This document shows positions 4,770-49,283 of a stretch of 64,000 bases of DNA, piece by piece. The notes under the pieces were generated by a model. It was not told the origin of the DNA. It saw only the letters and a program-made list of their open reading frames with translations, and ran no database searches. The position numbers were made by a program, and so were the translations under genes. The number at the start of each line of letters is the position of its first letter. Within the stretch, counting starts at the first letter, position 1. Origin of the DNA: Fidelibacterota bacterium (GTDB lineage: Bacteria; Fidelibacterota; UBA8477; JABMPR01); NCBI GenBank assembly GCA_021734255.1, contig JAIPJM010000004.1:65345-129344 (forward strand). Reading direction: 5' to 3'.

Positions 4770-4804
4770 TGAATAACGTCATCATAGAGCAAGGAGGCTT
4801 TACA

Positions 4805-23043: not shown

Positions 23044-25497
23044 GTGAAATACGGTTATTTCGACGACGACCGACGTGAATATGTGATCACTGATCCAAAA
23101 ACTCCATGGCCCTGGATCAACTATCTGGGTAACCAGGATTTTTTCCGCTTGATCTCAAATACAGGTGGAGGATATGTATTTTACCAGGATGCCAAGCTTC
23201 GCAGGATCACCCGGTATCGTTACAACAATGTCCCTCTCGACCAAACCGGAACATATTTTTATATCAAAGACGGTGAATATATCTGGAATCCAGGTTGGCA
23301 ACCCACGCAAGCAAAGCTGGAGAATTATTCATGTCGTCACGGTCTCGGATATTCAATTCTAAGCGGTACGAGGAGGGGGGTCCAGGCCGAGGTGACACAC
23401 GTGGTGCCCCTGGAATTCACTGGAGAGGTCCAGCGTATCTCATTAAAGAATGTTGGTAAGACACCCAAGAAGCTGGATCTGTTTAGCTATGTGGAGTGGG
23501 CACTTTGGGATGCCCAGGATGATGCCACTAATTTTCAACGCAATCTGTCTACTGGGGAAGTGGAAGTAGACGGACGAATCATTTACCACAAGACCGAATA
23601 CCGGGAGCGTCGCAACCATTACGCCTTTTATGCCTGCAGCGACCATCAGGATGGCTTTGACACCGACAGAGAGGCATTTCTGGGCCTGTACAATGGATTG
23701 AATGCACCTGACGTAGTTACGCGGGGGAAAGCCAGTAATTCGATCGCCCATGGCTGGTCACCCATCGCTTCACATCATTTATGCGTTGATCTTTTTCCTG
23801 GTGAATCCCGGGACATCATGTTTGTCTTAGGCTACGCTGAGAATCCTCCAGATGCCAAATGGGAGAAGCCAGGTGTTTTGAATAAGGACAGAGCAAAATC
23901 GATGCACCACCAGTTCAAACACACTCAGCAGGTGGATAAGGCACTTGTCGACCTGCGCGCTCACTGGTCGGAGCTATTGGATAATTACCAGGTGAGTGGT
24001 CTGGATGACAAGCTTGAACGCATGGTTAATATCTGGAATCAATATCAATGCATGATCACCTTTAACCTGTCGCGCAGCGCCTCCTATTTTGAAAGTGGTA
24101 TTGGCAGGGGAATGGGCTTTCGTGATTCCAATCAGGATGTTTTAGGGTTTGTCCATCAGCTCCCGGAGAGAGCCAGGGAACGCATCCTGGATCTTGCTGC
24201 TACGCAGCTGCGGGATGGGGGAGCCTTTCACCAGTATCAACCCTTGACCAAAAGAGGAAATGATGACGTGGGAAGCGGCTTTAACGATGACCCGCTCTGG
24301 CTCATCCTCTCAGTAACTGAGTATCTCAAGGAAACCGGTGATCTACCCCTCCTGGATGAGCGTGTAGATTTCGAAAATGAACCTGAATTGGCAGCACCTT
24401 TATCAGAGCACTTAAAACGCTCATTTGACCATGTGATCAATAACCTTGGTCCGCACGGATTGCCGCTTATCGGTCGGGCAGATTGGAACGACTGCCTGAA
24501 CCTGAACTGTTTCTCCGACATTCCTGGGGAACCCTTCCAGACCACTCAGAATAAGGAAGGTGGTGCTGCGGAGTCAGTATTTATAGCTGGCATGTTCGTG
24601 GCCTATGGTAGCGAATATGCCCGTATTTGTGAATTGACGGGTAATAATTCTGAGGCACAGCGCGCCAGAAATGCGATCGAAAAAATGAGGGCAGCAGTCA
24701 ATGAACATGGTTGGGATGGGAGATGGTTTTTGAGAGCCTATGACCATTTTGGTGAAAAAGTTGGCAGCAGTACAAACAAAGAGGGTAAGATATTTATAGA
24801 ACCCCAGGGTATGTGTATCATGGCCGGCATCGGACTTGAGGATGGAAGAGCGCTGCAGTCCCTGGAATCAGTACAGAGTCAGTTGGAGTGCGAACATGGG
24901 ATCGTCCTGAATCAGCCTGCCTACACGAGCTATCACTTGAATCTGGGAGAGATCTCAACCTACCCACCTGGTTATAAAGAGAATGCCGGGATCTTCTGCC
25001 ACAACAATCCCTGGATAACCATTGCAGAAACGCGACTGGGCCGGGGAAGTAGAGCCTTTGAGACCTATGCCAGAATTGCACCTGCCTATCTGGAAGATGC
25101 ATCGGATATGCATCGGATGGAGCCCTACGTATACTCCCAGATGATCGCAGGAAAAGATGCAGCGAGACCGGGAGAAGCAAAGAATTCATGGCTGACTGGT
25201 ACAGCATCCTGGAATTTCTATGCCATCAGCCGCTTCATTCTGGGGATACAACCCGATTATGATGGACTCATCATCGATCCCTGTATCCCTGCAGGCTGGA
25301 GCAATTACACCGTGGAAAGAAACTTCCGTGGAGCCAGGTACAGCATTACGATCAGTAATCCCGATCATATTGAAAAGGGAGATATATCTCTGACGGTAAA
25401 TGGTGGATCTATCCCTGGGAATACCATCCCGATCCAGAAATCTGGAACATCGAACAGGGTTATAGCCACAATGATCAAAAAGGGTAAATCAAAATGA
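23044..25497 (+). CDS. GH94 glycoside phosphorylase (cellobiose/laminaribiose phosphorylase family).
   Basis: N-terminus [30 protein letters not shown] is near-diagnostic for GH94 cellobiose phosphorylase-like enzymes. Length 817 aa, cytoplasmic. Confidence 0.85.
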
Positions 25498-27179
25498 GAA
25501 AAATTTTATTAGCTGCACTGATCCTGTTGTCGATCCTGGGATTGGTCTTGTCATGTAATCCAGGCATGCAGGCTGACTCATATCCAATGAACACGATCCA
25601 TGTGAACCAGTTGGGCTATTTGCCCGATGGCTACAAATCAGCAGTTGTTATCGGAAGTTCCAACACCTTCACCATTGTCAGCTGTGAAAGCAAAGCAGTA
25701 GTATTCAGGGGTGATCTCAGTGAACCCCAATATTGGGAAGCATCCGGAGAAACTGTGCGACTGGCTGATTTTACCGAATTTAATACCCCTGGTATCTACC
25801 GTGTGAATGTTGGTGGTGGTCGATCCCACCGTTTTGAAATAGATCGCCAGGTTTTTTCTGAGTTGGCGGCGGCAAGCGTAAAAGCGTTCTATTTCCACCG
25901 GGCTGGCGTAGGCCTGGAAGAGAAATATGCTGGCATCTATAGCAGAAATCCAGGACACACAGATACCGCTGTCGGCATTCATGCCAGTGCAGCGTCAGAA
26001 TCGAGACCGGAAGGCACCATTATTTCCTCTGCAAAAGGTTGGTACGATGCAGGTGACTATAACAAATATATCGTCAATTCAGCGATCACCGTTTCAAGCA
26101 TGATGAGTGCTTATGAACACTATCCAGAGATCGCTGGCGGACTGGACCTGAACATTCCAGAAAGTGGTGATCAAACCCCTGATCTGCTGGATGAGATCCG
26201 CTGGAATCTGGAGTGGATGCTCACCATGCAGGACCCAAACGACGGTGGGGTCTATCACAAATTGACCAGTAAGAACTTCAGCGGCATGATCATGCCTGAG
26301 GAGGATACATCAGAGCGCTGGATAGTAATGAAAACCACACCGGCTGCCTTGGACTTTGCCGCTTCCATGGCACAGGCCAGTCGAGTTTATAAGCCTTTTG
26401 ATGGGGCATTTTCGGAGCGGTGTTTGACAGCAGCGTTTGGAGCCTGGGAATGGGCTCAGGGCAATATGGATATCCACTACAGTCAACCCGAGGACATTCA
26501 CACGGGCGCTTATGCTCAGCCTGGAGCTTCCTTTGAGGATGAAAAATTTTGGGCAGCCACCGAGCTGATGATCACCACAGATGAAACATATGATGCAGTG
26601 CTGCCGCAGCCCCTTAAGGTGCCAGAATGGCGAGATGGAGCCGCACTTGCTGCCATGAATCTTTTGCATAAGCAATCTGACGATGGTGTGAAGCAAACAT
26701 TTTTTACTCTGGCAGACTCTCTGTTGAACGAACAGCAGATGAGTGCCTACGATGTATCCAATGCAACATTTCGCTGGGGCAGTAATAGTGATTTTCTCAA
26801 CCAGGCCATGATTCTTATTGCGGCTTATCGTTTCAGTGGGAATGAGGCATATAAAGATGCAGCCCAATCAACTTTCGACTGGGTCATGGGGAAAAATCCA
26901 ACCGGGTTTTCATTTGTGACTGGCTTCGGGGATAAGACACCCAGGCATATTCATCACCGCCCCTCAGAGGCAGATGGTATTGAGACACCGCAACCAGGCT
27001 GGGTGGCTGGTGGACCAAACCCGTGGAACCAGGAAGATTGCGGGGCCGAAGCCTACACCTCAAGCTATCCTGCACTGGCTTATATCGATCAGCTGTGTAG
27101 TTACGCCACAAATGAGATCGCCATCAACTGGAACGGTGTGCTTGTTTATGTCTCCATCGCCCTGGATGCTGAGGGCTAA
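25494..27179 (+). CDS. GH9 endoglucanase lipoprotein with N-terminal Ig-like (CelD_N) domain.
   Basis: Lipobox LVLSC. GH9 motifs [12 protein letters not shown] and [18 protein letters not shown] (H-x-R signature). Start overlaps the GH94 stop by 4 nt. Confidence 0.75.
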
Positions 27180-28192: not shown

Positions 28193-28393
28193 TACCAGTC
28201 CTTTATTTACCTTGTATCGATTATTTCAGACAAATATATTCACACCGAATTGAAGAGTACGGGCTGACTTTTTCTACTGAGGGAAACCTTCTCTCTGGAA
28301 CTGGAGAATGACGCCAGGAAGTAGAAATGTATTATGAAAGATCATTTTCTTCCTTCGATAGAGTATTAATAAAGTAAAAAAAGGAGAGCCGTA

Positions 28394-28780
28394 ATGGGTC
28401 AACAACAATTACTTCTGATCGTATTAGGTACCATCATTGTTGGTGTAGCCGTTGTCGTAGGTATCAACATGTTCACACAGGGCGCGGTAAACGCCGAACG
28501 TGATGCCATGATGCAGGACATCAATGCCATCGCCTCAGATGCTGCAGCATACTGGCGTAAACCAGCCGCCATGGGTGGTGGAGCAAGGGATTTTATCAAT
28601 GCAACTGATATCACGTCCTTTGGTTCAGATTCCTCCAACGCGAATGGTACATATGTCATGTCAGGTGCAACTGCTTCTCAGTTTACACTGACTGGAACCG
28701 GTGCCAATGAAGGTGTTGTTATCGAAGCTACAATTACTCAGAATGGAATTAGTGGTTCACCAACCATTACCATGCCGTAG
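28394..28780 (+). CDS. Pilin-like protein (candidate major pilin) with a non-canonical N-terminus.
   Basis: Strong RBS aaggagag 5 nt upstream. N-terminus MGQQQLLLIVLGTIIVGVAVVVGINMF is a hydrophobic alpha-1-like segment followed by a helix-forming region (AVNAERDAMMQDINAIASDAAAYW). 128 aa. First gene of the pilus operon, followed by a strong hairpin. Lacks the G/FTLIE motif. Confidence 0.45.
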   Translation: MGQQQLLLIVLGTIIVGVAVVVGINMFTQGAVNAERDAMMQDINAIASDAAAYWRKPAAMGGGARDFINATDITSFGSDSSNANGTYVMSGATASQFTLTGTGANEGVVIEATITQNGISGSPTITMP

Positions 28781-28829
28781 TAGTTTGACGTAGAACGTTT
28801 TATAGCACATATTATCCCTTAATTGCAAA

Positions 28830-28861
28830 CCGGATGGGCGTTGGTATCAACGCCCATCTGG
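28830..28861 (+). terminator. Strong 14-bp stem-loop between the pilin gene and pilC (attenuator/partial terminator).
   Basis: ccggatgggcgttg-gtat-caacgcccatctgg, 14 bp with one G-U, followed by uuucaugcuu. Typical arrangement downstream of major pilin genes. Confidence 0.5.
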
Positions 28862-28885
28862 TTTCATGCTTCATGGGAGTCCCTG

Positions 28886-30205
28886 GTGGAGCAATTTAGA
28901 TATACCGTCACAACTGTCGCGGGAAAGCAGATCAAAGGCGTTCTCGAGGCAAATAATAAGAAAGAAGCCAAAGCAGCCGCCCTCGAGTTCGCTGCCAAGC
29001 GTCGCCTTACTTTTCAGAGTATTGATAAGAAGGCAACGTTTCTTTATAAGGCCCAGAAATCTGGTCAGGAACCGACGACTGGTGAATTACAGGCTTTCTC
29101 AAAGACGGAAGTACAAGCCGCCCTTGAAAAGCTCGGATTTCGGGTACTCAGCGTTAATAAAAAGCTGCTCGATTTCAAGGGCAAAGTTCCCTCCAGCGAA
29201 GTGTCTTCCTGGATCAGGTTGTGCGCAGACCTGCTAAAAGAAAACCTGCCTTATGATGAGATCCTCACATTGCTTGGAGAAGACACGCCAAATAAACGGC
29301 TGAAAGAAACGATCAAGCAGATACAGCAGGACCTGAAAGAAGGAAAAGAAGGTAAGGAGGTCTTCGGTAAGCATGAGGATGTTTTCGGAAAATTCCCGGC
29401 CTATATGCTGGCCGTTGCTTCAACCTCTGGAAATATGCGCAGCGTCTACGAAAGTACTGCCAAATTCATGGCCCGAGACGAAGAATTTAAACGCAATCTG
29501 AGAAAGACGCTGGTTTCACCCTTCGTGACCCTGGGTGTGATCTTCCTGGTTGTTGCGTATTATGTCATGGTCATTTTCCCCGAAACTGCCACGATGTTCG
29601 AAAAATTTGGAAAGCCATTGCCCCCTATGACCGCCAAGACGATGGCATTCAGTAATTTTCTGTCAAACAACTGGATGATCATTGTAGCTGCTATTCTCAT
29701 TCCGGTTATTGGTCTGATCATCTATACGAGAACGGAGCAGGGGAAACTGTGGAAAGATAAGGTGGTGATCAGGATCCCAGTCATCGGAGAATTACTCCAC
29801 AAAACAAGTATTGAGATCTTTGCAAGAGTCTTTTACTCCCTGTATAGCGGGTCGGGGCAAAATATTGAGGTCATTAAGATCGCTTCTGAGGCTTGCAGAA
29901 ATAATTATATTGCCTATCAAATGAATAATGTGGGTATTCCCATGATGCTTGGAGAAGGTAAGGGCATTGTCGAGGCCATGGAAGCGACAGGTGTTTTTAC
30001 TAAAACCGCCATATCCAGATTTCGTTCTGGTGCAGAATCTGGAGCACTCCGTAATAATGCGCTACAGCTCGCGAATTATTATGAAACAGAAACAGGCTAC
30101 CGAATGGACCGTGTTGTTGGAGCGATTAACGGCGTTGTCACCATGGTCATCATGACGGTGATGATCGGATTAACGGTTGTTTCATCAGAAACCTCAGTCA
30201 TGTAG
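28886..30205 (+). CDS. pilC: Type IV pilus / T2SS platform protein PilC/GspF.
   Basis: Two GspF-type domains and three TM segments. N-terminal FRYTVTTVAGKQIKGVLEANNKKEAKAAAL matches the PilC N-terminal fold. The ORF-track ATG (28823) lies upstream of the hairpin. GTG 28886 with SD GGGAG 6 nt upstream is more plausible. Confidence 0.8.
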   Translation: MEQFRYTVTTVAGKQIKGVLEANNKKEAKAAALEFAAKRRLTFQSIDKKATFLYKAQKSGQEPTTGELQAFSKTEVQAALEKLGFRVLSVNKKLLDFKGKVPSSEVSSWIRLCADLLKENLPYDEILTLLGEDTPNKRLKETIKQIQQDLKEGKEGKEVFGKHEDVFGKFPAYMLAVASTSGNMRSVYESTAKFMARDEEFKRNLRKTLVSPFVTLGVIFLVVAYYVMVIFPETATMFEKFGKPLPPMTAKTMAFSNFLSNNWMIIVAAILIPVIGLIIYTRTEQGKLWKDKVVIRIPVIGELLHKTSIEIFARVFYSLYSGSGQNIEVIKIASEACRNNYIAYQMNNVGIPMMLGEGKGIVEAMEATGVFTKTAISRFRSGAESGALRNNALQLANYYETETGYRMDRVVGAINGVVTMVIMTVMIGLTVVSSETSVM

Positions 30206-30222: not shown

Positions 30223-31998
30223 ATGGCAAAAATTGGAGATATACTTGTTGCAAAAGGCGTGATCTCTCAGGAAATCCTGGAGCAAGCCTTAGAGGTTCAG
30301 CAGAATGAACCCGCAAGTAATCGCAGGCAACTGGGGAAAATATTCTACGAAGATCTTGGTGTCGACCAGCATTCTGTGCTCCATGAGTTATCACAAATAT
30401 TTGCCATCAAGGAGCTGGACGTTCATCCAGATGAATTGACAGAGGAACAGATTGCCTTCATTGATGGCTTATATGACAGTCGCTCCGATGAAGTGAGGGC
30501 AGCCATGATCCGCGCGAAAATGGTCCCTTTCAAATTAAATGGCCAGGGCAGTGAATCTGTTTTGACCATCCTGGCTGCTGATCCAACGGATCCGGATGTC
30601 GCCAGTATGGCGGAGCAACTACCCTACAGCAATTTCGAGATCGTTTACAGCAAAGTTGATAATGTGGATGCTGTTCTTAACAAGGTCCTGTCCAGCAGAA
30701 ATGATTTTCTCGGTATTTTGGATGAGATCCAGTATGACGAAGAATCGGTCATCGACGACGAAGATGATGTCGATGAAGCTGCCCTTGATGCCGAGATAAA
30801 TCAGAGTGCCTTAACTGCACTGGTAGAGGGGGTTCTCGTTGAAGCAGTGCGTCAGGGTGTTAGTGATGTCCATATTGTCCCCAGTCCAGGAAACGTTACG
30901 AACATCAATTTCCGTGTTGATGGTAAACTGGAAACATGGCATTCACAAAAAGGGGTAAAACCTGAAGCCATTGCTGCTGTTTTCAAGGATAAGACCCGTA
31001 ATGTGGATCGGTTTGAAAGAGACATGGCCCAGGATGGTTTTATCCAGCGCAAGATCGATGATCATCTCATCCGTTATCGCGTGTCACTGATCCCCATCGT
31101 TGGCTCCGAGTTTGACCGAAAGCTTGAAAGTATTGTTATTCGTATTCTGGATGACCGTAAAGTGATCACGGATCTGAATAAATTGGGGCTTCAGGAACAG
31201 GCCCTGAAAGATTTTAAAAAGTCTATCAATAAGCCCTCTGGAATTGTCATCGTTACCGGTCCTACCGGCTCTGGGAAAAGTACAACACTGGTAGCAGCGC
31301 TATATGCAGTTATAACGCCAGAGAAATGTGTGCTCACAGTCGAGGATCCAGTTGAGTACATGATCAATGGTGCCCGGCAGTTGAAGATCAGTGACAAAAT
31401 GGGTTTTGAGCAGGCGATTCGTGCGATCCTCAGACATGACCCGGATATTGTTCTCGTCGGGGAGATCCGTGACCTGAAGACGGCTGAAACAGCCATGAAA
31501 CTGGCCAATACTGGGCACCTGACATTTTCGACCCTCCATACCAATGATGCACCCAGTGCCGTTTCACGATTATATAAGATGGGCATCGAGCCCTTCCTTA
31601 TCAGCTCGTCTGTCAGTTTGATCTTGGCCCAGCGGCTGATCCGCCGGCTTTGTCCAGATTGTAAAAAACCGGCAGGACCTGAACATAAACCTGCTGCACT
31701 CGAATTAGGATTTACCGAAGAGGATCTGAAAAACCATACCATCTATGAAGCTGTCGGCTGTAATAATTGTCGGCACGGCTATAAAGGCCGCTCTGCGGTT
31801 ATGGAATCCCTTTATTTCACGCCAAAAATAAGGGAGATGATCATCACATCAGGTGACCAGATCGATGAGGAGGCGATCAAGGAGGAAGCCATTCGAAATG
31901 GCATGCTGACTCTGCGAATGTCAGGTATGGAGCGGATTAAAGAAGGGGTTACCTCCATAGAAGAGATCATTGCTGTCACTGTTGAGGATGCTGAGTAA
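30223..31998 (+). CDS. pilB: Pilus assembly ATPase PilB/GspE/MshE with N-terminal MshEN (c-di-GMP-binding) domain.
   Basis: N-terminal KIGDILVAKGVISQEILEQALEVQ matches the 24-residue MshEN motif. Walker A GPTGSGKST, His-box GHLTFSTLHTNDA, tetracysteine CPDC...CNNC. Confidence 0.85.
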   Translation: MAKIGDILVAKGVISQEILEQALEVQQNEPASNRRQLGKIFYEDLGVDQHSVLHELSQIFAIKELDVHPDELTEEQIAFIDGLYDSRSDEVRAAMIRAKMVPFKLNGQGSESVLTILAADPTDPDVASMAEQLPYSNFEIVYSKVDNVDAVLNKVLSSRNDFLGILDEIQYDEESVIDDEDDVDEAALDAEINQSALTALVEGVLVEAVRQGVSDVHIVPSPGNVTNINFRVDGKLETWHSQKGVKPEAIAAVFKDKTRNVDRFERDMAQDGFIQRKIDDHLIRYRVSLIPIVGSEFDRKLESIVIRILDDRKVITDLNKLGLQEQALKDFKKSINKPSGIVIVTGPTGSGKSTTLVAALYAVITPEKCVLTVEDPVEYMINGARQLKISDKMGFEQAIRAILRHDPDIVLVGEIRDLKTAETAMKLANTGHLTFSTLHTNDAPSAVSRLYKMGIEPFLISSSVSLILAQRLIRRLCPDCKKPAGPEHKPAALELGFTEEDLKNHTIYEAVGCNNCRHGYKGRSAVMESLYFTPKIREMIITSGDQIDEEAIKEEAIRNGMLTLRMSGMERIKEGVTSIEEIIAVTVEDAE

Positions 31999-32003
31999 GT
32001 CTG

Positions 32004-32495
32004 ATGGGTCGAGCTGAAATGATCATTCTGGTTGCCGCCATAGCCATTCTTGGCAGGTATTCACTTACCGTGAATGATGTGTTGGCCAATAATGAGATCC
32101 ACGTGATTCAATCTGAGTATGAATTGAATGTGGTCGGTATCGCAGAGCGTTATTTCAGGCAAGCCTGGTTAAAATCATTTGATGAAACGACAGTTGATGG
32201 CGCCCCCGTTGATATTCCAAATGATTTTACTGACAAGGAGCACCTCGGAGTCGATTCAGGAGAATCTTACCCGGATTTTGATGATGTTGATGATTTTGAT
32301 GATTTTTCAATTACGGGCACAGCTGATAACGGAATGGTTTACGACATGCAAATTGTGGTAGGATATATTTCTGAGGATGATAAGGAGAATATTGCGAATC
32401 AACGGTCAACACTTAAGCGGATGAATATTACGTTCAGCAGTGATTATTTAAGAAACGACATTACGCTGAGTCGAATTTTTCCGTACTGGAAATGA
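32004..32495 (+). CDS. Minor-pilin-like protein (N-terminal hydrophobic segment, acidic C-terminal region).
   Basis: N-terminus MGRAEMIILVAAIAILGRY, the same MG-plus-hydrophobic pattern as the 28394 pilin-like gene. Located inside the pilus operon. Confidence 0.35.
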   Translation: MGRAEMIILVAAIAILGRYSLTVNDVLANNEIHVIQSEYELNVVGIAERYFRQAWLKSFDETTVDGAPVDIPNDFTDKEHLGVDSGESYPDFDDVDDFDDFSITGTADNGMVYDMQIVVGYISEDDKENIANQRSTLKRMNITFSSDYLRNDITLSRIFPYWK

Positions 32496-32501
32496 TGGAC
32501 G

Positions 32502-33059
32502 ATGGGTGATATTCAACTAGCAGGAACGTTCATTATTGGTGGAATGGTCTTACTGACGATCTTCGGTATGAATGTGGAGATCCTTGAAACCAATAGCCTG
32601 AATTCCCTGGGTCGCATGGCTCAGGAAAATATGGGTGAGATGCTTTCTATTATTCAATACGACTTTAAAAAGATCGGGAATCAAGTACCACGGACATCAA
32701 ATGCATTGATAGCCGTGTCAGATACGACGATATCTTTTTTAGCAGATATCGATCAAAATGGAAGTATAGATACGATTGCTTACAGGGTGGGACCTGCCAG
32801 CGAGACGAGTAGTACAGATAACCCGTCTGATCGTTTGCTATACAGGAGTGTAAACGGAGTAGAATATGACGTTGGCCTGGGTATTACTCAGTGGCAGCTG
32901 TCCTACTTCAACGAGGATATGGGGTCAACAATGGCGCTGGACAGTATCAGGCTGATAGAATTATCTCTGACTGTCGAAACGATCTATGGATACAATGAGC
33001 AATACGGGAGTGCATCCTGGTCGACTCAATTTGCGCCTAAGAATATGGGAGTTCTGTAA
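32502..33059 (+). CDS. Minor-pilin / pseudopilin-like protein.
   Basis: N-terminus MGDIQLAGTFIIGGMVLLTIFGMNVEIL, then a beta-rich region (QWQLSYFNED...IRLIELSLTVE) reminiscent of GspJ/PilW-type pseudopilins. Confidence 0.35.
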   Translation: MGDIQLAGTFIIGGMVLLTIFGMNVEILETNSLNSLGRMAQENMGEMLSIIQYDFKKIGNQVPRTSNALIAVSDTTISFLADIDQNGSIDTIAYRVGPASETSSTDNPSDRLLYRSVNGVEYDVGLGITQWQLSYFNEDMGSTMALDSIRLIELSLTVETIYGYNEQYGSASWSTQFAPKNMGVL

Positions 33060-33598
33060 TGAGCGAGCTGAACGTCGGGGGGAAAAGCAAAATAGATATC
33101 AAGCCGGAGACAGGTGGAGCCATTAGCGTCAAAAAGGAAGCATCTGGAACGCTGATCCATTTCAAGGAAACACCGATCCTGCTGGCCCATTTCCCCCAGG
33201 AGATGGCAAAGAAGTTTCTCATGCTGGGCCGTGAGGAAAAATATAATTCCCACGTCGATATTCTAAGAAAGGGCCAGGTCGGTAGAGATATGTTTTTGAT
33301 CTGCCAGGGTAGGATATCCGTGTGGAAAGAGAATATTATCCTGGGTGAGCTGTTAAAGGGTGATGTATTCGGTGAACTGGTCATGTTCAGGGATCATTAT
33401 CGTATTGCCACGGTAAGGACTGAGGAACCGACCATTGTTCTTCGTTACAACAGACAATGTCTGCTTGACTTCTTTGCCAGACAGGATCCAAGATATTTTA
33501 ACATCTATACCATGAATATTATTGAGATACTGCGCAGAAAACTGATCGCCACGAATAGTCGCGTAGTTAAGCTTGAAGAAGAACTGGTACGACAGTAA
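33059..33598 (+). CDS. Cyclic-nucleotide-binding domain protein.
   Basis: cNMP-binding fold signatures (GDVFGELVMF, RIATVRT). Embedded between the minor pilin genes and pilT. Confidence 0.6.
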   Translation: MSELNVGGKSKIDIKPETGGAISVKKEASGTLIHFKETPILLAHFPQEMAKKFLMLGREEKYNSHVDILRKGQVGRDMFLICQGRISVWKENIILGELLKGDVFGELVMFRDHYRIATVRTEEPTIVLRYNRQCLLDFFARQDPRYFNIYTMNIIEILRRKLIATNSRVVKLEEELVRQ

Positions 33599-33631: not shown

Positions 33632-34861
33632 ATGGATCAGAACTTAATCGATCAAGTTCATAATATTGTAAGTCCCGTTATTGCGAAAATTCCAGATACA
33701 CTTTTTGGTCTGGAACGTCTGGAATTTATGTCCGACGAAGCCGGGAAGCTTAGCGACGTCGACCAGACAACCCTGCGGAATTTTTTAAATGGTACCTTGA
33801 TCCATATGAAAGAGCTGGATGCCTCTGATATTGATATGGGATCCAGCGGCTGTCGAGAAAAGATTTGGTATCGCGCCCATGGCGAGAAAAACCCCGATCC
33901 GAAAATGGGGGAGTTCAAGCATGCTGAGATGGATCTTATCCTTTTGAATATTCTCATGGAAAAGCAACGTGACGCCCTGATCAAAGACCGTAATCTGGAC
34001 TTTTCCTACTCCCTGGATGATGCAGGCGAGCCCATCCGCCTGCGCGGTGATATGTATTTCGACCTGGGGCACCTGGCCTTGAATATGCGCATGATCGGCG
34101 ATGAGATTCGTCCCTTTTCATCATTGGGGCTTCATCCTGAAATTGCCAAAGCACTGAGTTTACGCCACACGAAGAAGGGATTGGTTCTGGTGACTGGCAT
34201 AACTGGCTCTGGAAAAAGTTCAACTCTGGATTCCATCATAGACGCCAACAACCAGACCAGCAATGCCCATATCGTCATCATTGGGTCGCCCATCGAACAG
34301 GTCCATAAACCCAAGGGCTGTCTCATTCGGCACCGAGAGGTGGGCTCCGATGTGATGTCTTTCAAAGAAGGCGCCATACAGGCACTCCGCCAGGATCCTG
34401 ATATTATCATCATTGGTGAAATGCGTGATCCAGAGACAATTATCACCGGCCTGGAAGTCACAGATAGTGGACACAAAGTATTTTCTACGCTGCATACCTC
34501 ATCCACAGTTGAGAGTATAGACCGAATCATTGGTGAAGTACCAGCTGACGAGCAGAATCGCGTGCGTGAACGTCTGGCTGACGTTCTCAGTGTGGTTATT
34601 TCACAGAAATTGCCCAAAACGCTGGACGGCAAGCGCACACTGGCGAAAGAAGTTTTGCTGATGACCCCTCCTATTCGAGCAGCCATCAAGAATAATAACC
34701 TGGACGAGATCTATCAGATGCTCCAGCAGTCTGCCAGTCTGGGGATGATGACCCTGGAGCAGGATCTTAAACGCTTATTTGAAGAGAAGAAGATCTCATA
34801 CGAAGAAGCCCTGTCAAATGCCAATGATAAAAAGCGATTCAAGGAAATAGTCAAGCTGTAG
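33632..34861 (+). CDS. pilT: Twitching-motility / retraction ATPase PilT-like (with N-terminal extension).
   Basis: Walker A GITGSGKSST, His-box GHKVFSTLHT, PilT-like AIKNNNLDEI (compare AIRNLIRE). Confidence 0.8.
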   Translation: MDQNLIDQVHNIVSPVIAKIPDTLFGLERLEFMSDEAGKLSDVDQTTLRNFLNGTLIHMKELDASDIDMGSSGCREKIWYRAHGEKNPDPKMGEFKHAEMDLILLNILMEKQRDALIKDRNLDFSYSLDDAGEPIRLRGDMYFDLGHLALNMRMIGDEIRPFSSLGLHPEIAKALSLRHTKKGLVLVTGITGSGKSSTLDSIIDANNQTSNAHIVIIGSPIEQVHKPKGCLIRHREVGSDVMSFKEGAIQALRQDPDIIIIGEMRDPETIITGLEVTDSGHKVFSTLHTSSTVESIDRIIGEVPADEQNRVRERLADVLSVVISQKLPKTLDGKRTLAKEVLLMTPPIRAAIKNNNLDEIYQMLQQSASLGMMTLEQDLKRLFEEKKISYEEALSNANDKKRFKEIVKL

Positions 34862-34871
34862 ATCGATCTAA

Positions 34872-37391
34872 ATGAGCGCACCTAAGAATATACTGAGCAT
34901 TTACCAGGACGGGGTTGAGTTAAAGACCGTTCTGGCAGGTACCTCCAAGGGAAAGATAGTGATAAAGGCAATTGATCATGCTACACTCATCTCACCTTTT
35001 CAGCAGGAGTTCGAAGAAGATGTTGAGCTGGATGAAGCCGGTGAACCACTCGAATCTCCTGACGATATCTTTGGGATCGATAATTCGGGACCCCTGGCCA
35101 CCGATGATCTAGGTGAAGCAGTGTCTGCAGAGGAGGAAGAAGCCTCTGGCAGCATGGTGGATGAGACTATCGAGGAACAGTTCGATGAAGACGAGACCAA
35201 CGAAGATATTCTCCACACACTCCTGACACATGTACCAGAAAAACGCTATGCCCATGCCATAAATCTTCCCAGAAATCTTGCGCACACCCTTCATCTCCGG
35301 ACGGATTATTCCCAGATGAAGCCCAAGGAACGCGAAAAAAAGATATTTAATGAGATCGTAGAGCGACTGAATGATACGGTCATTCCCAAAGACCACTACG
35401 ATTCTATCCTGACACCCAGCGGTGATGCCTACTCCTTCGTTTACAAAAATGATATTCCCATCATCCACGCCTTCGACAGTATTCAGCAATATCTTAAGGT
35501 AAAACCCAGATTTGTCTCAGTCACTCCTGATGAAGTGGCGCTTGTGAATCTGCTTCGCTATAATTATGAATTCGAAGCAGAAGAAGTCATCACCCTGGTC
35601 AATATTGAGGATGTACAAAGCAGTTTTATTATCATGCAAGGCAATGATGTCCTGCACTTTTCACAGAGCATTCGCGAAAATCTGAAATCCCCATCCCTGC
35701 TGAATGCAGTCACAGGTCGTATGCTTTATGATCAGGACCTGGGACACTTCCCTGATTCATCCAGGATCATTCTCACAGGTGAGGCGCCGCAGATAAACGC
35801 CAAGGAGCACTTTGTCCAGACGAATCCAGGTGTAAATGTTGAATATTTTCAACTAAACGCTGAAAAATTCGTCATACCTGAGGAATTGGATGCCACCTTC
35901 ACAGGCTATGCGGTCCCCCTTGGAATGGCTGTCCAGGCGCTACTACCAAAACTTGAATCACATATCCCCATCAATCTTATTCCAGATTATGTCAAACAAA
36001 GGCAGCGGACCTTCAAACTTGCTTGGCACGGAATGCTCCTGCTGCTGCTGATCTTTTTAACACCTATTGGAATAAACCACATCTATCAGCAGAAGTTGGA
36101 TGAACAGCGAGCAGCTCAACTCAGGATCAGTAACCTTAATCAATCCATCAAAGACATCGACTGGGTAACCTATATGGTTGATAGTCTATCCCTGGAGCAT
36201 GCCTCTGTGCAGGAGCAGTTGCATAATCTGACAAAATTATCGCAAGGATCGCTGCGCTGGAGTGTGACCTTCAAACAGTTACTTGTTGCCTTGGAGGAGG
36301 TAAATGGCGTCTGGTTTGCAGATCTTAAGAGTAAGGGGGAAGGGATCGAATTAGCTGGGCTTAGCCTGTATAGGAATCGAATCCCCAGGCTCATCGAATA
36401 TTTTGAAGAGGCCGAGATATCCACGGTGATTCCTGCTGATATAAGAGGAAAAACGGTCTATAAATTTACCCTCTCCATCAATTCGATAACTGCAGATTCT
36501 GCCGCTTTTAATCCAAAACTTATTACACCACCGCCCATGCCGATTGAGAGTTTGGAAGCGTCTGCTCCAGTGACCATAATCGATGAGAACGAGGATATCC
36601 AGACACCACCTGACACGCTGGAAGTTATTGAGCCAGAACCTGAACCAGAGCCAGAACCGCAAACCCCTGATACCATGGAAACTGATCCTGCAGACATGGA
36701 GCAACTGGCAGATAGCCTGTTACCTGAAGCCGTTTTTGACTCGCTCATGCCCATGACAGACGATATCTCAAGACTTTCCGATTCTCTTGAGAATGTGACT
36801 ACCCAAATTGTATCAGAACCCTCAATGGATGGGAATGGTGGCATCCCTATAACGGCGCTCAAAGTTCATAAAGTTCGCCGGGGGGAGACCTTGAAGAAGA
36901 TCGCCAGAGATCGCCTGGGGGATGAAAAACGCTGGCGCGAAATATATAATCTCAATCGGGATGTACTATCCAGCCCAAACAAACTGAGTATCGGTCAGAT
37001 TCTTGTTGTACTTCAAGATGAGGAAGATCTTGATCCAATTAAACATAAGGTTAAACCAAATGAGAACCTGAAGATCCTGGCACTCTGGTACTATGGTGAT
37101 GAAGAGCGCTGGGAAAAACTCTATGAATTGAATAAGCACACGATCAGCAATCCGAACATCATTTATCCGGGGCAGGAATTGACCATCATGTCCTATGACA
37201 ACAGGTTTAATTACCCGCTCCAGACCCATGTGATTCGCTCGGGGGAGACATTGAAGACCATTGCCAGGAAATATCTGGGTGATGAAGCACGTTGGGAAGA
37301 GATCATGCAGCTCAATCCAAAAAGCATTAAGGATCCGAACCGAATATTTAAAGGGCAACGGATAAAAGTGAGAAACGAAGTTGGAAAATAA
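34872..37391 (+). CDS. PilM-PilN-like fusion protein with an acidic/Pro-rich linker and three C-terminal LysM domains.
   Basis: N-terminal actin-like PilM pattern (ILSIYQDGVELKTVLAGTSKGKIVIKAIDH). Internal TM plus coiled coil (LAWHGMLLLLLIFLTPIGINHIYQQKLDEQRAAQL) like PilN. EPEPEPEPEP linker. Three LysM repeats (HKVRRGETLKKIARDRLGDEKRWREIYNLN; HKVKPNENLKILALWYYGDEERWEKLYELN; HVIRSGETLKTIARKYLGDEARWEEIMQLN). Confidence 0.55.
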   Translation: MSAPKNILSIYQDGVELKTVLAGTSKGKIVIKAIDHATLISPFQQEFEEDVELDEAGEPLESPDDIFGIDNSGPLATDDLGEAVSAEEEEASGSMVDETIEEQFDEDETNEDILHTLLTHVPEKRYAHAINLPRNLAHTLHLRTDYSQMKPKEREKKIFNEIVERLNDTVIPKDHYDSILTPSGDAYSFVYKNDIPIIHAFDSIQQYLKVKPRFVSVTPDEVALVNLLRYNYEFEAEEVITLVNIEDVQSSFIIMQGNDVLHFSQSIRENLKSPSLLNAVTGRMLYDQDLGHFPDSSRIILTGEAPQINAKEHFVQTNPGVNVEYFQLNAEKFVIPEELDATFTGYAVPLGMAVQALLPKLESHIPINLIPDYVKQRQRTFKLAWHGMLLLLLIFLTPIGINHIYQQKLDEQRAAQLRISNLNQSIKDIDWVTYMVDSLSLEHASVQEQLHNLTKLSQGSLRWSVTFKQLLVALEEVNGVWFADLKSKGEGIELAGLSLYRNRIPRLIEYFEEAEISTVIPADIRGKTVYKFTLSINSITADSAAFNPKLITPPPMPIESLEASAPVTIIDENEDIQTPPDTLEVIEPEPEPEPEPQTPDTMETDPADMEQLADSLLPEAVFDSLMPMTDDISRLSDSLENVTTQIVSEPSMDGNGGIPITALKVHKVRRGETLKKIARDRLGDEKRWREIYNLNRDVLSSPNKLSIGQILVVLQDEEDLDPIKHKVKPNENLKILALWYYGDEERWEKLYELNKHTISNPNIIYPGQELTIMSYDNRFNYPLQTHVIRSGETLKTIARKYLGDEARWEEIMQLNPKSIKDPNRIFKGQRIKVRNEVGK

Positions 37392-37426: not shown

Positions 37427-38665
37427 ATGTCATATTCAATAAGAAATTCGATCATCCTGGCGATTATCCTGCTCCTGCTTGGCGGCGGCGGTTACGGTTG
37501 GCTGCATTTTACTTTCGATAAGAAAAACGAAAGCTTGACCTCCAAAGTTGAGAACAAGGAACAGAGATTGGCTGAGCTGGAAAAAGCAATGGCAGATTAT
37601 GAGTACTTCCGGGAAGAACTCTATAAAGTGAAGACACAATTCGATTATTACCCGAAGTTGTTGCCCCCTGAATCAGCGATCCAGGGCACCTATCGCTATC
37701 TGGACAAGCTATCCACACGGCGGGCATCCTTTAACTACGATTTCCGTTTCGACGGGATCAAGCGTGAAAATGGTTCGATCAAAGCCACATATCTGCTTAC
37801 CGGCGAGGGCGATTTCGATAATATTGCCAATTTCATTTATCGGCTGGAGAATGGGAAGCCCATCTATAAAATACAGAATCTGAGCTTTAAGAAAAAGAGC
37901 CCCCGTGGTTTCCAGCAATCCGATAATGTCGAGGTCAGCATGCAGCTGACTGGGTTGTTCAGCGATCGGGAGGAACAGAGCGATGAAGAGATCTCCCGCA
38001 TGTTTGATAAATCTCTCATTTTCCCGGGCATGCGCTTAAAGATCCTCCAGGAATCACAGCATACTAAGCTGCAATATCATAAGGTTCGTCCAGGTGAGAC
38101 CCTGAAGAAGATCTCCAGAACCTATTTTGGGACGACGACAAAATGGCGAGATATTTACGATCTGAATCGATCGAAACTCAAGACCCCGCATATGATCTAT
38201 GTCGGGCAGCGTCTAAAGATCAAAGAAGAACAAATTGACGACTATTTCATGATCCATGAGGTCAAACCGGGTGAGACCTTGCGCTCTCTGGCAGAACAGT
38301 ATCTGGGTGACGAGAATCTCTGGCGAGACGTATATAAGTGGAATCAGGACCGGATCGAGAATCAGATCCCTGATGACATCCTTACGACCTATGACCCATT
38401 CAAACCGCTGATTTTATCTAAGTTGCCACCCAACGTGGATGGTCTGGTCAATGTGGCCGGATCTCGCCTGGTCGCCTTGACCAATAACCTGGCATTCATC
38501 CTGGATCAGGAAGGTGTGATGCAGGAGATGAAAGTCGGTGATAAGGTATACCTGGGGAACTTGTCCCGGATCGATCTACACAGGGGAAAGGTATTATTCA
38601 ATTTGAACAAGGGTGGCATCTTTTCCACAGAAGAATTAACACTTGCCAATTCAGGAAGGAATTGA
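37427..38665 (+). CDS. PilO-like (TM plus coiled coil) protein fused to two LysM domains and a PilP-like C-terminal beta domain.
   Basis: N-terminal TM IILAIILLLLGGGGYGW plus coiled coil. LysM repeats (HKVRPGETLKKISRTYFGTTTKWRDIYDLN; HEVKPGETLRSLAEQYLGDENLWRDVYKWN). C-terminus MKVGDKVYLGNLSRIDLHRGKVLFNL resembles PilP. Confidence 0.5.
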   Translation: MSYSIRNSIILAIILLLLGGGGYGWLHFTFDKKNESLTSKVENKEQRLAELEKAMADYEYFREELYKVKTQFDYYPKLLPPESAIQGTYRYLDKLSTRRASFNYDFRFDGIKRENGSIKATYLLTGEGDFDNIANFIYRLENGKPIYKIQNLSFKKKSPRGFQQSDNVEVSMQLTGLFSDREEQSDEEISRMFDKSLIFPGMRLKILQESQHTKLQYHKVRPGETLKKISRTYFGTTTKWRDIYDLNRSKLKTPHMIYVGQRLKIKEEQIDDYFMIHEVKPGETLRSLAEQYLGDENLWRDVYKWNQDRIENQIPDDILTTYDPFKPLILSKLPPNVDGLVNVAGSRLVALTNNLAFILDQEGVMQEMKVGDKVYLGNLSRIDLHRGKVLFNLNKGGIFSTEELTLANSGRN

Positions 38666-38666
38666 T

Positions 38667-39923
38667 ATGCAGCATTATTCCAGAGCATTCAGCTTACGAA
38701 TAAAAGAAGGATTCTCGATTTTCTGTCTACTGGCTTTGATCGGCTTTTTGACCTTGCCAACTCAGTTGCTGGGACAACGTTTGCCTACCGCAGCTGTGTC
38801 CCCTGATGAAATGGTGTCATTCCAGCCAAACACCACTTTCCAGCAAGCCATCCAGATCATCAGTCTCCTGTCCTCCCAACACGAAGGCAAAGTTGTCATC
38901 GATCCAACCGGGACCAAGGGACCTATCAATATTGCAATTCCACCTTCACATTGGCTAAAGGCGCTGGAGCTGGTCGCCCGTGCGAAAGGGCTTGAATACG
39001 CTGAAAAATCCACCTATTACGAGATTCGCAAACCAACCGCGAGATCGACTGGACCCAGTGTGGCAAAACCTGCAGCACCTATCGTTCAAAGTGGCTCTTT
39101 TCCTCTGGATACGCGCGAGATTGAGATCTCAGCAATTTTTTTCCAGGGTGATCGTCGGTCCCTGGCTGAAGTTGGTGTAGATTGGTCTGCTATCACAGAT
39201 ATTGGTACTGGTGATACGATCACCGTTGGGAACAACTCAGCCTTCAATGTTTCCCAGGAATTGTTAAGTATCGGAGGTTCCTATAATGCAGCCTTTGGGC
39301 AGGCAACGACGTCTGTCATGGCCCTACTGCAGACATTTGAAGCTCTGAATTATGGCGAGATCATTTCCAACCCATCCATCCAGGTCATGGATAAGACCAC
39401 GGGAAGGATACAGGTGGGGGAAAAATTCTCTATCAAGCAGAAAGATTTCTCTGGCAATACCATTGAGAATTTTTTCGATGTGGGTACCATTTTGGAGGTG
39501 ACACCTGAAGTGATCCAGGAACAGGATGTGACTTTTATCCATCTTGCGATTTCTGCAGAGAGAAGTTCAGCTTTTCCTGATCCGGTGAGCACGAGAATTG
39601 CCAATCAGACAGCTGTGACCAATGTGCTGCTTCTGGATGGCGAGCAAACAGTTATCGCAGGATTATATTCAGAGGAAGTGTCAGAAGTACGCAAAGGTAT
39701 TCCCATCCTTAAAGATCTACCCTGGTGGGTCCTGGGTATTAAATACCTGGCAGGCTTCGACTCTGATGATGTGATCGAAAAAGAATTGGTAATAATCATC
39801 AAGGCCCAACTGGTCCCAACTATTTCGGATCGTCTGGAAAAACGACATGCCAGGATGCGCGATCTCATAGAAGAAGAACGCCAACAGTTTAAGGACAATA
39901 TTGAAGCAAACGAGGATCAATGA
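38667..39923 (+). CDS. pilQ: Secretin (PilQ/GspD family), short form without N-terminal AMIN domains.
   Basis: Signal peptide. C-terminal secretin domain (GIPILKDLPWWVLGIKYLAGFDSDDVIEKELVIIIKAQLV). Start at 38667 preferred (SD AGGAAGG 7 nt upstream) over the ORF-track 38643. Confidence 0.8.
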   Translation: MQHYSRAFSLRIKEGFSIFCLLALIGFLTLPTQLLGQRLPTAAVSPDEMVSFQPNTTFQQAIQIISLLSSQHEGKVVIDPTGTKGPINIAIPPSHWLKALELVARAKGLEYAEKSTYYEIRKPTARSTGPSVAKPAAPIVQSGSFPLDTREIEISAIFFQGDRRSLAEVGVDWSAITDIGTGDTITVGNNSAFNVSQELLSIGGSYNAAFGQATTSVMALLQTFEALNYGEIISNPSIQVMDKTTGRIQVGEKFSIKQKDFSGNTIENFFDVGTILEVTPEVIQEQDVTFIHLAISAERSSAFPDPVSTRIANQTAVTNVLLLDGEQTVIAGLYSEEVSEVRKGIPILKDLPWWVLGIKYLAGFDSDDVIEKELVIIIKAQLVPTISDRLEKRHARMRDLIEEERQQFKDNIEANEDQ

Positions 39924-43825: not shown

Positions 43826-44440
43826 TCACGCGTGTGGGGGATAAAAAAGGTATTCAAACTCTCGGAGTTTCTGCCGTCGTTTCACTGTCTCTGCCTGACC
43901 GAGAATATCATATAAAATACGCCAGAATTGACGGCTGTGATTTTTTTCACGGGTGTGGGCAAGCTCGTGGAGTAGCACATAATCCCTGAGGTCATCCGGG
44001 AGATGGAACAAATTTTTATTCAGACTGATATTATTCCTGGCTGAGCAGGAGCCCCAGCGGCTCCGTTGGTTCCTGAAACTGAGTGTGTTGTATTCAAATC
44101 CGTGGACAGTTGCTAATTGTTCGATCCTTGTACTAAGCCCATCACGAACGGTTTTTTCCTCTAGGGATTTGATCGTGGGGAAAAAAGCCAGGGACCGTTC
44201 TTCTATCTGCTTTGAGCGCTGGAGTGCTTTGCTGATCCATTCGGTTTTGCCCTCGACAAAGTTTTGAACAGACGCCGGGGAACTTCTCCCCGGAAAGGAA
44301 ACCATAACACCCTGGAAGGGGATGACCTGAAGATGCATCCGCTTGAGCTTTGGCTTACGAGCGTAGTGAATCTGACCGAAGCGCGGGTGGGTTTCTGTCC
44401 ATAAGTCAGTTCGGGGTTCAGTTCGGGAGAATATTTTCAT
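43826..44440 (-). CDS. YgjP-like (DUF45 / M48-like) zinc metallohydrolase.
   Basis: C-terminal HELAHTREKNHSRQFW (HExxH) in the YgjP-like arrangement. Confidence 0.6.
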   Translation of the reverse strand: MKIFSRTEPRTDLWTETHPRFGQIHYARKPKLKRMHLQVIPFQGVMVSFPGRSSPASVQNFVEGKTEWISKALQRSKQIEERSLAFFPTIKSLEEKTVRDGLSTRIEQLATVHGFEYNTLSFRNQRSRWGSCSARNNISLNKNLFHLPDDLRDYVLLHELAHTREKNHSRQFWRILYDILGQAETVKRRQKLREFEYLFYPPHA

Positions 44441-48907: not shown

Positions 48908-49273
48908 ATGTCTCAGATACGAATCCTCATCGTCGACGACGAGAAATTCTTTATTGAACCAGTCAAACGCCTCCTGGAGGGGCAGGACTATGCAGTTGAC
49001 GTAGCAAATGATGGTATCTCAGGACTTGCCATGGCCCGGCAGAAACAGCCCGATCTCATTATGCTTGATCTCATGCTACCCGGTATGAATGGATACCAGG
49101 TTTGTCGACTCCTGAAATTCGAAGAGCAGTTGAAGCATACCCCGGTCATCATTGTTACTGCCAAAGACAGTGAGCGGGATCGGGAAATAGCAGAAGAAAG
49201 CGGCGCAGCGCTCTATCTGGTCAAACCGCTAAACTACCAAACCTTCCCATCCCAGATCGAATCGCTCCTGTGA
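48908..49273 (+). CDS. Single-domain response regulator (CheY/PilH-like).
   Basis: REC domain (ILIVDDE...DLIMLDLMLPGMNG...VIIVTAK). 121 aa, no output domain. Immediately upstream of pilD. Confidence 0.8.
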   Translation: MSQIRILIVDDEKFFIEPVKRLLEGQDYAVDVANDGISGLAMARQKQPDLIMLDLMLPGMNGYQVCRLLKFEEQLKHTPVIIVTAKDSERDREIAEESGAALYLVKPLNYQTFPSQIESLL

Positions 49274-49283
49274 TCAGTTCTCT

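Follow-up and report, generated by a model that had tools for sequence, protein, structure and literature searches.

A conserved class of pilin-like proteins that start at or near the alpha1 helix, encoded with a type IVa-pilus-like machine in a Fidelibacterota bacterium

Type 4 pilins are described as being made 'invariably' with a class III signal peptide, a leader that ends in Gly or Ala and is removed by a prepilin peptidase (PMC10191384), and the question raised by the locus described here is whether a pilus of this kind can be built from subunits whose genes start at or near the helix itself. The locus lies in a 64,000-nucleotide stretch of DNA (the window) from a Fidelibacterota bacterium, positions 65,345 to 129,344 of contig JAIPJM010000004.1 (assembly GCA_021734255.1), which contains an operon for a type IVa-pilus-like machine. 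An earlier note made from the sequence alone had singled out four proteins in or next to this cluster that begin with Met-Gly and an immediate hydrophobic helix, and all four open reading frames (ORFs) are present with the first residues as quoted: a 128-residue protein (28394-28780, plus strand; N-terminus MGQQQLLLIVLG, or MGQQQLLLIVLGTIIVGVAVVVGINMF in a longer read of the start), a 163-residue protein (32004-32495, plus strand; MGRAEMIILVAA), a 185-residue protein (32502-33059, plus strand; MGDIQLAGTFII) and a 344-residue protein (MGRMVLIVVLGF). The last had been placed 'at 40958'; the ORF is real, but it is on the minus strand, with its start codon at 41992 and its 3' end at 40958. By fold, conservation pattern and gene context the four proteins are pilin-like, and they are a distinct pilin class. 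The reading that we favour, and hold to be somewhat better than even, is that they are leaderless, PilD-independent pilins of a retractile type IVa-like machine (PilB, PilC, PilT, PilM/N, PilO, PilQ), the 128-residue protein being the major pilin and the 163-, 185- and 344-residue proteins minor pilins.

The first step towards an answer is to establish where translation begins. In-frame stop codons lie 7, 4, 3 and 5-6 codons upstream of the starts at 28394, 32004, 32502 and 41992, respectively (that of the 128-residue gene is the TAA at 28370-28372), and none of the four genes has an ATG, GTG or TTG between the stop and the start, which bears out the view that the starts are fixed by upstream stops. 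The good ribosome-binding sites that had also been ascribed to these genes exist for two of them, with AAGGAG or AAGGA 7-13 nt 5' of the starts at 28394 and 41992 (AAGGAG at 7-12 nt in the case of the 28394 ATG), but the Shine-Dalgarno matches of the 163- and 185-residue genes are weak; these two look translationally coupled, because they start 5-6 nt past the preceding stop. NCBI records from Candidatus Marinimicrobia/Neomarinimicrobiota metagenome-assembled genomes hold identical sequences with the same starts and lengths, all four titled 'hypothetical protein'. A six-frame scan of the window found intact starts of the Met-Gly plus hydrophobic run type at these four genes only, a fifth match being broken by a stop, and no prepilin start of the G-[FMILV]-T-L-I-E type in any of the six frames.

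The same starts recur well beyond this genome. The neighbourhoods, 10 kb to each side, of homologues of the PilT encoded in the cluster (52-85% identity) gave 80 related loci, whose titles name Neomarinimicrobiota, Kryptonia/Kryptonium, Ignavibacteria/Ignavibacteriales, Melioribacteraceae, Calditrichota/Caldithrix, KSB1, Balneolaceae and Bacteroidota; to its Ignavibacteria, Kryptonia and Calditrichota homologues the cluster PilT is 52-63% identical. In most of the roughly 190 homologues of the four proteins in these loci an in-frame stop lies 0-7 codons upstream (median 3-6 codons, with 42-62 homologues per family), and there are paralogues with a TTG or GTG start precisely at the Met1 position. 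The start codons are shown to be real and conserved. The earlier note had proposed, as a check, a search for the MG-hydrophobic start in homologous clusters; 52 of 81 loci encode pilins of the MGQQQ type, frequently two paralogous ones, and no canonical prepilin start was found in the 80 clusters, which belong to the Fibrobacteres-Chlorobi-Bacteroidetes (FCB) group; the same scan was positive in 32 of 80 control loci centred on PilD. A word-indexed search returned 3285 homologues of the 128-residue protein, and 117 of the best 120 begin MGQQQLLLIVLG. A profile search over 1.84 billion cluster representatives (clusters at 50% identity) gave 1626 clusters at E <= 1e-3, of which 828 reached E <= 1e-10. 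Among the best 150 representatives, 138 begin M-[G/A]-x-x-x and go straight on into the hydrophobic run; in these, position 1 of the profile falls on residue 1, where the motif MG[QST]QQ also begins. The remaining 12 are either fragments or proteins in which the head domain is joined to a different N-terminus.

Many of these clusters carry two tandem paralogues of the major pilin gene (L014, L016, L035, L062, L066, L067, L069-L071, L074, L075, L077, L080). They lie outside Marinimicrobia, mostly in Ignavibacteria, and the upstream copy often has a TTG or GTG start and a more divergent helix, for example MGQQQLLLIILAIIIVGIAIAISI. In one of them, an Ignavibacteriales chromosome (L080), the two MGQQQ pilin genes (3792-4169 and 4211-4618) are flanked by GT-C-type glycosyltransferase-like genes (1553-3400 and 4781-6355; TMEM260-like, 8e-41, with a weak PMT match, 2.6e-4), which are candidates for pilin O-glycosylation.

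The signature shared by the class, as read from the alignments, is a Met, 1-5 polar or small residues and a hydrophobic helix of 20-odd residues. Numbered from Met1, the proteins of the window have Gln5 (128 residues), Glu5 (163 residues, M-G-R-A-E), Gln5 (185 residues, MGDIQ) and neither (344 residues). In the major pilin family G2 and Q5 are each kept in 137 of the 138 representatives, L11 in 135 and G17 in 136. In Marinimicrobia and at a number of other loci, members of the 163-residue family (47 of 81 loci) start MGRAE, MGKAE, MGRVE or MGQRE, and elsewhere MNTGQ, MTTGQ, MGTGQ, MSTGQ, MHTGQ or MNLGQ; they share one register, M1-to-M1 and N24-to-N24, a few having shorter or longer tails, with G/N/T/S/H at position 2, G/A/V/R at position 4 and, in most, Gln or Glu at position 5. 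The 185-residue family (51 of 81 loci, always adjoining the 163-residue family) starts MGDIQ, MFDIE, MPDIE, MVDIE, MDIE or M-x-x-x-[LI]-D and has no conserved Gly or Ala, only an acidic or amide residue at position 4-6. For the 344-residue family (48 of 81 loci) the start is MG[RK] in Marinimicrobia, whereas members from Kryptonia, Calditrichia and KSB1 have M[FLV]GK; no Gln or Glu precedes the helix.

These comparisons narrow several earlier statements about the N-terminus. A Gly at position 2 is a feature of this genome and of the major pilin, but the class as a whole does not share it, since homologues of the 163- and 185-residue proteins start MNTGQ, MTTGQ, MFDIE, MSVILD and the like, and 'Gly2 = PilD -1 residue' is excluded as a universal rule by the variation of position 2 in the minor families. 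Of the two options offered, cleavage after Gly2 or a distinct class, the distinct class stands, but there is no single cleavage-after-Gly2 rule, because the 163- and 185-residue homologues lack a conserved Gly2. The absence of Glu at +5 holds only if cleavage after Gly2 is assumed, and counting from Met1 removes it from the 163-residue protein, which has Glu5, and from the 128- and 185-residue proteins, which have Gln5. Similarly, the lack of a Glu5 registry is true only when the count begins after Gly2. From Met1, Gln/Glu5 is conserved in the major pilin and most of the 163-residue family, and only the 344-residue protein has no such residue near the start, as is the case for tip pilins of the GspK type. 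Within the 163-residue family (window 32004-32495 and loci L001-L078) Glu5 always occurs with Arg or Lys at position 3-4 (MGRAE, MGKAE, MGQRE) and Gln5 with neutral residues (MNTGQ, MTTGQ, MGTGQ); the charge variants group by lineage, which implies few independent events.

That these proteins are pilins is supported first by structure prediction. The AlphaFold2 model of the 128-residue protein (predicted local distance difference test, pLDDT, 78) has a helix from residue 2 to 55 packed on a four-stranded sheet, and its best PDB folds by Foldseek are PilA4 of Thermus thermophilus (6xxd, prob 0.91, 124 of 125 columns) and the minor pilin PilE of Pseudomonas aeruginosa (4noa). The model of the 344-residue protein (pLDDT 84.6; predicted TM-score, pTM, 0.77) has a helix from 3 to 61, a four-strand sheet from 66 to 119 and then a C-terminal beta-helix, and the PDB folds that it matches are beta-helices of the ice-binding type, with prob 0.99 for 7ehk, and ComZ (6qvi, E 3e-3), a competence pilin of Thermus that itself carries a beta-solenoid. 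The long alpha-1 helix that had been suggested for modelling is present in both models, on a sheet, in the lollipop arrangement of pilins, and the hydrophobic stretch of the major pilin, L6-F27, has the expected 20-25 residues. Among 23 homologues that are 71-95% identical overall to the 128-residue protein, residues 1-28 do not vary, and the head does. The N-terminal profile of the 163-residue family aligns M1-to-M1 with that of the major pilin (hhalign prob 72%) and with that of the 344-residue family (prob 76%). The most distant sequence relatives of the 344-residue protein are Acidobacteria proteins, one of them titled 'Tfp pilus assembly protein PilX' by the Joint Genome Institute (JGI), with which it has in common a C-terminal DGDCEL...G.GLLVVTG motif. 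The 185-residue family gave no significant profile match to the other pilins and is the weakest of the four assignments, supported by gene context and an N-terminal hydrophobic helix. None of the four proteins matches N_methyl (PF07963 or TIGR02532) at E <= 0.1 in Pfam or NCBIfam, a check in which a canonical pilin of locus L161, used as positive control, was matched by PF07963, and neither Pfam and NCBIfam, searched with the four proteins, nor PDB sequences, searched with profiles of all four families, gave anything relevant. The absence of a class III signature reported earlier is confirmed, and the proteins do form the distinct class that had been proposed.

The head of the 128-residue pilin has a wider distribution than the pilin itself. 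It is also found fused to unrelated N-termini that resemble those of lipoproteins or signal peptides and as three tandem copies in proteins of ~380 residues (both among P0122, P0123, P0125, P0129, P0137 and P0168). The head may thus be a domain for surface display or adhesion that is used repeatedly, although assembly artefacts may also account for these proteins.

The next question is what the prepilin peptidase encoded in the window does. The PilD that had been called at 49284-50051 (plus strand) is bona fide, a bifunctional prepilin peptidase/N-methyltransferase (A24_N_bact 1.8e-37, Peptidase_A24 1.3e-14, CxxC...CxxC and GxGD motifs), identical to the NCBI record 'prepilin peptidase [Candidatus Marinimicrobia]', and paired with a single-domain response regulator (48908-49273, plus strand; response-regulator models, for example PleD 1.7e-26). 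To say that the pilins lack the prepilin signature 'despite PilD being present' is therefore correct as to its presence, but the pair matches one that is embedded in canonical clusters of relatives, and neither tblastn nor a profile hidden Markov model (HMM), built from homologues of the window PilD and run over all ORFs, detected a PilD or other A24 peptidase in the 10 kb on either side of PilT at the 80 related clusters. In the control loci PilB or PilC adjoins PilD in 58 of 80. The closest relatives of the window PilD (L081, L083) keep the order secretin ... 344-residue pilin ... TPR protein ... response regulator-PilD. The next, at 60% (L161) and 47% (L163) identity, lie inside canonical type IVa pilus (T4aP) clusters of the order PilM_2-PilO-secretin-PilT-PilT-response regulator-PilD-PilB-sigma54 activator-PilC, which in L161 is followed by the canonical prepilins MNIKRQMG/FTLMELVV and MKTNNKG/FTLIELIM, the latter being the one matched by PF07963. 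The order PilT-response regulator-PilD-PilB is seen again in L085, where PilD is 39% identical. By eye the window regulator is ~70% identical to the one preceding PilD in L161; by tblastn it is 73-75% identical to those of close relatives and 44% identical to that in L085. The pair occupies 48908-50051 in the window, 9623-10762 in L161, 9636-10783 in L163 and about 9594-10756 in L085. Beyond Marinimicrobia the nearest named PilDs are those of Firmicutes, at 40-42% identity.

Since the same pair sits in canonical clusters of relatives, the window PilD and its regulator most likely became detached from, or are what remains of, another T4aP system of the canonical kind; any substrates of that system would be encoded beyond the window. 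PilD is probably not the enzyme of the MG-pilin system. The detachment of the pair, which stands between a TPR protein and a gene for a 1119-residue alpha-amylase-like protein, suggests that the second system was lost or relocated. Melioribacter roseus was reported to be without pilD (2013 genome paper), a report that fits an unrecognisable pilA and a PilD-independent machine. Regulators near Ignavibacteria clusters, considered as counterparts of the PilD partner, proved to be receiver domains of a hybrid histidine kinase.

Translation begins 1-5 polar residues before the alpha1-N helix, so that the start codon itself makes the N-terminus that is otherwise made by prepilin peptidase; this first step of the leaderless reading is shown. 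The steps that would follow draw on canonical pilus biology and on the PilD data. The helix would act as a signal recognition particle (SRP)/Sec signal anchor that leaves the N-terminus in the cytoplasm, and the subunits would need no cleavage by PilD; the mature N-terminus would be (formyl-)Met1, or Gly2 after methionine aminopeptidase if residue 2 is small. Gln or Glu at position 5, at the head of the hydrophobic run, would replace the polar contact between subunits made by the canonical Glu5. In canonical systems Glu5 is found in all pilins except the tip-capping one (PMC10191384), a pattern mirrored here, in Met1 numbering, by Gln/Glu5 in the major pilin and most of the 163-residue family and by an acidic or amide residue at position 4-6 in the 185-residue family, with none in the largest subunit. 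The 163-, 185- and 344-residue proteins might form a priming tip complex, and the 344-residue protein is, from its model, a candidate tip or adhesin subunit, the beta-helix module of which could serve adhesion. Whether a whole clade (Marinimicrobia, Ignavibacteria, Kryptonia, Calditrichota, KSB1 and Balneolaceae; 1,600 or more pilin clusters at 50% identity) has pilins that are born mature, with no class III leader or peptidase step and with Gln5 replacing the salt bridge between Glu5 and the N-terminal amine, we consider evenly balanced.

The serious alternative, in our estimate less likely than not, is an ultra-short class III leader, in which an N-proximal Gly would stand at -1 and the stretch M, MG, MxG or MxxG would be cut off by PilD or a different A24 peptidase, to leave a mature protein starting with Gln (major pilin and 163-residue family) or Lys/Arg (344-residue family). 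It would satisfy the definition of pilin leaders as ending in Gly or Ala (PMC10191384), and engineered leaders of only 3-4 residues are still cleaved by the archaeal peptidase PibD (PMC4307647). A number of our own observations weigh on its side, or otherwise against the leaderless proposal. Gly occurs within the first 2-4 residues in 62 of 62 major pilins, 42 of 44 members of the 163-residue family and 41 of 42 of the 344-residue family, the last keeping a Gly-Lys/Arg pair while the residues before it vary, and a short leader with an obligatory terminal Gly would look like just such a kept Gly behind varying residues. The only family without a conserved Gly, that of the 185-residue protein, is also the one with the weakest pilin assignment. 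The window PilD is intact, is 70-82% conserved among close relatives, which also keep the synteny, and lies ~7-9 kb from the cluster, a distance kept in these relatives (L083); the evidence for its absence elsewhere comes from neighbourhoods of 20 kb and a single genome paper of 2013. The alignments leave the register relative to canonical pilins ambiguous: the major pilin profile aligns with canonical pilins of the control loci by placing G17 on G14, an offset of +3, and not Q5 on E5 (prob 69%), the 163-residue family aligns M1 with F1 and E5 with E5 but at prob 4%, and global alignment was uninformative. Finally, the PDB fold matches of the 128-residue model are weak (E 0.03-0.05).

Among the points against an ultra-short leader is its lack of a consistent site. 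In the 163-residue family the residue before Q/E is G, A, V or R, and in Marinimicrobia the Gly is at position 2, which would require the site to jump two residues; the 185-residue family has no conserved Gly or Ala at all. A leader of 1-2 residues would be below any that has been demonstrated as cleaved. The enzyme is likewise missing, from all 80 clusters and, as reported, from M. roseus, and the window PilD belongs to the module of canonical clusters. Moreover, Lys or Arg at +1 of a protein without Glu5 would place an uncompensated charge in the filament core.

Far less probable is that the four proteins are not pilins but bitopic or Sec-secreted proteins, with an N-terminal segment that is a signal anchor or a signal-peptidase-I peptide, and that the real pilins, users of PilD, are encoded elsewhere. 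In its favour are the lack of a sequence match between any of the four and a pilin family or PDB pilin, the weak fold matches, a V-N-A motif after the helix of the 128-residue protein and the lack of independent pilin evidence for the 185-residue protein. Yet the continuous helix from 2 to 55 on a four-strand sheet has the lollipop shape of pilins, and both of the top PDB matches are to pilins, while the 344-residue model has the same module and counts ComZ among its matches. The N-terminal 28 residues are invariant, unlike signal peptides, and a hydrophobic run of 22 residues is long for a signal-peptide core. The 128-residue gene also occupies the PilA position beside PilC-PilB in about 50 loci, with no other pilin candidate in those clusters. 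Last, that the true proteins carry longer canonical leaders encoded upstream of mis-called starts can be dismissed as ruled out by the stop codons 0-7 codons upstream in most homologues, by the identical first residue of 138 of 150 diverse representatives, by TTG and GTG starts at that same position, by the absence of a G-F-T-L-I-E-like peptide from every frame searched and by the failure to find longer leaders with a G/F-x-x-x-E site in homologues.

If leaderless pilins are the better answer, it is useful to ask how they stand relative to known systems. They resemble canonical type IVa pilins (P. aeruginosa PilA, Neisseria PilE, Thermus PilA4; IPR012902/TIGR02532/PF07963) in their lollipop fold, in a hydrophobic helix of ~22 residues at the N-terminus that is extremely conserved next to a head that varies, in a polar Gln or Glu heading the hydrophobic run, and in a PilB/PilC context with PilT, PilM/N/O and PilQ and with one major and several minor subunits. 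Unlike these, they have no hydrophilic leader, no Phe1 and, in the major subunit, Gln for Glu5; residues 2-4 are polar (GQQ) instead of TLI, there is no N_methyl match and the cluster has no PilD. Two of the features that define type IV pilins, the leader ending in Gly/Ala and the N_methyl match, are thus absent, and helix, fold and context are present. In place of the leader there are 1-5 residues including Met, with V or R at the aligned -1 position in 163-residue homologues, although an 'MG' leader is formally possible for the window proteins. The 344-residue protein resembles the tip pilins GspK and PilX, and ComZ, as the largest subunit, the only one without Gln/Glu5 and one with an extra module on a pilin module, but it has no significant PilX_N or T2SSK match, it starts MG[RK] where GspK and PilX have a basic leader ending in Gly, and its module is a beta-helix of the ice-binding type, not the alpha-domain of GspK.

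Archaeal pilins and archaellins (the substrates of FlaK, PibD and EppA) are alike in tolerating short leaders and in lacking a conserved Glu5. EppA substrates have Gln at +1, which the Gly-Gln junction here recalls. However, archaeal subunits need a dedicated peptidase, and the machine here is that of a diderm bacterium, having a secretin, PilT and PilM/N/O, and components of archaeal type were not seen. The 'T2SS' (type II secretion system) of Bacteroidetes, as in Cytophaga hutchinsonii (CHU_3191-3202), is likewise a divergent FCB filament system with a polysaccharide link and hard-to-recognise minor subunits, and it clusters with T4aP in phylogenies (PMC6668835, PMC5553014). In contrast to the system here, which has PilT, it has an in-cluster Peptidase_A24 and a pseudopilin that was found with the T2SS-G signatures IPR013545/PF08334 as queries (PMC5553014), and the lack of both here rules out identity between the two. 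Two other classes were considered and rejected: Tad/Flp (type IVc), as there is no Flp-like G/XXXXEY motif at the N-termini, the ATPases are PilB- and PilT-like and one platform protein contains two T2SSF stretches; and the T2SS pseudopilins GspG-K, as there is no T2SSG/H/I/J/K match in Pfam or NCBIfam and a PilT-like ATPase is in the operon.

On its Pfam matches the operon is a type IVa-pilus-like machine with full machinery: PilB, PilC, PilT, PilM/N/O and a PilQ secretin are encoded together, and the same families are found in 71-81 of 81 loci. It opens with the putative major pilin gene (28394-28780; a 5-residue polar tail, the 22-residue helix L6-F27 and a small beta-sheet head), which lies directly upstream of the genes for the PilC-type platform protein (28823-30205, plus strand; T2SSF 6.2e-27) and the PilB-type extension ATPase (30223-31998, plus strand; T2SSE 1.2e-100). 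After the minor pilin candidate of 163 residues and the putative minor pilin of 185 come a cyclic-nucleotide-binding protein (33059-33598, plus strand; cNMP_binding 8.2e-14), a PilT-like retraction ATPase of 409 residues (33632-34861, plus strand; T2SSE 1.2e-31), a PilM/PilN-like alignment protein (34872-37391, plus strand; LysM 1.1e-23, weak PilN 0.0082; 77 of 81 loci), a PilO-like protein (37427-38665, plus strand; PilO 4.8e-4, LysM 1.1e-15; 74 of 81 loci), the PilQ-type secretin (38643-39923, plus strand; Secretin 3.4e-25; 71 of 81 loci) and, last, a lipoprotein. The gene for the 344-residue protein, a large modular putative minor pilin, is just downstream on the opposite strand.

The start of the cyclic-nucleotide-binding gene, a possible regulator, overlaps the stop of the 185-residue gene; its position inside the operon and its recurrence in 14-17 related loci suggest cyclic-nucleotide control of piliation. 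The three C-terminal LysM peptidoglycan-binding repeats of the PilM/N-like protein and the two of the PilO-like protein are an unusual link between pilus alignment and the cell wall. Between the pilus cluster and PilD lie genes for two paralogous TPR proteins of ~500 residues (44418-45962, minus strand, and 47216-48709, plus strand), 26% identical over 475 residues and with synteny kept in close relatives; the first has a weak C-terminal Fis-type helix-turn-helix and the second a weak PilW-like TPR match (TIGR02521, 0.0011). Upstream of the pilus cluster, window positions 1-27179 are occupied by a glycan-utilisation locus with a histidine kinase and sigma54 activator, an SSF symporter, a protein with a family 9 carbohydrate-binding module (CBM9), a TonB-dependent receptor, a PorV-like protein and two glycoside hydrolase family 16 (GH16) enzymes with type IX secretion C-terminal domains; an ORF of 561 residues (25494-27179) is GH9-like by eye only. 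The adjacency of this glycan-degradation locus hints that the pilus serves attachment to polysaccharide particles.

No description of the pilin class outlined here was found in Pfam, NCBIfam, PDB sequences or the searchable literature (leaderless pilins, the MGQQQLLL motif, Marinimicrobia/Ignavibacteria pilins). That the Pfam and NCBIfam models miss it shows that they miss thousands of pilins, and the same is to be expected of tools that rely on the motif of class III signal peptides, such as PilFind and IPR012902. A conserved class of pilins that starts at or near the alpha1 helix either breaks the rule of an invariable leader or sets a new lower limit of 1-3 residues for its length; both outcomes, no processing or a leader of that length, fall outside current definitions, and both bear on what the leader and PilD are for, be it topology, timing or extraction from the membrane. 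If the leaderless reading is true, no earlier family of type IV filaments, whether bacterial or archaeal, would share its independence of prepilin peptidase, and a PilD-independent pilin would simplify heterologous pilus production as a possible use. The lineages that carry the class include abundant marine and sediment bacteria, in which these pili may mediate attachment to particles.

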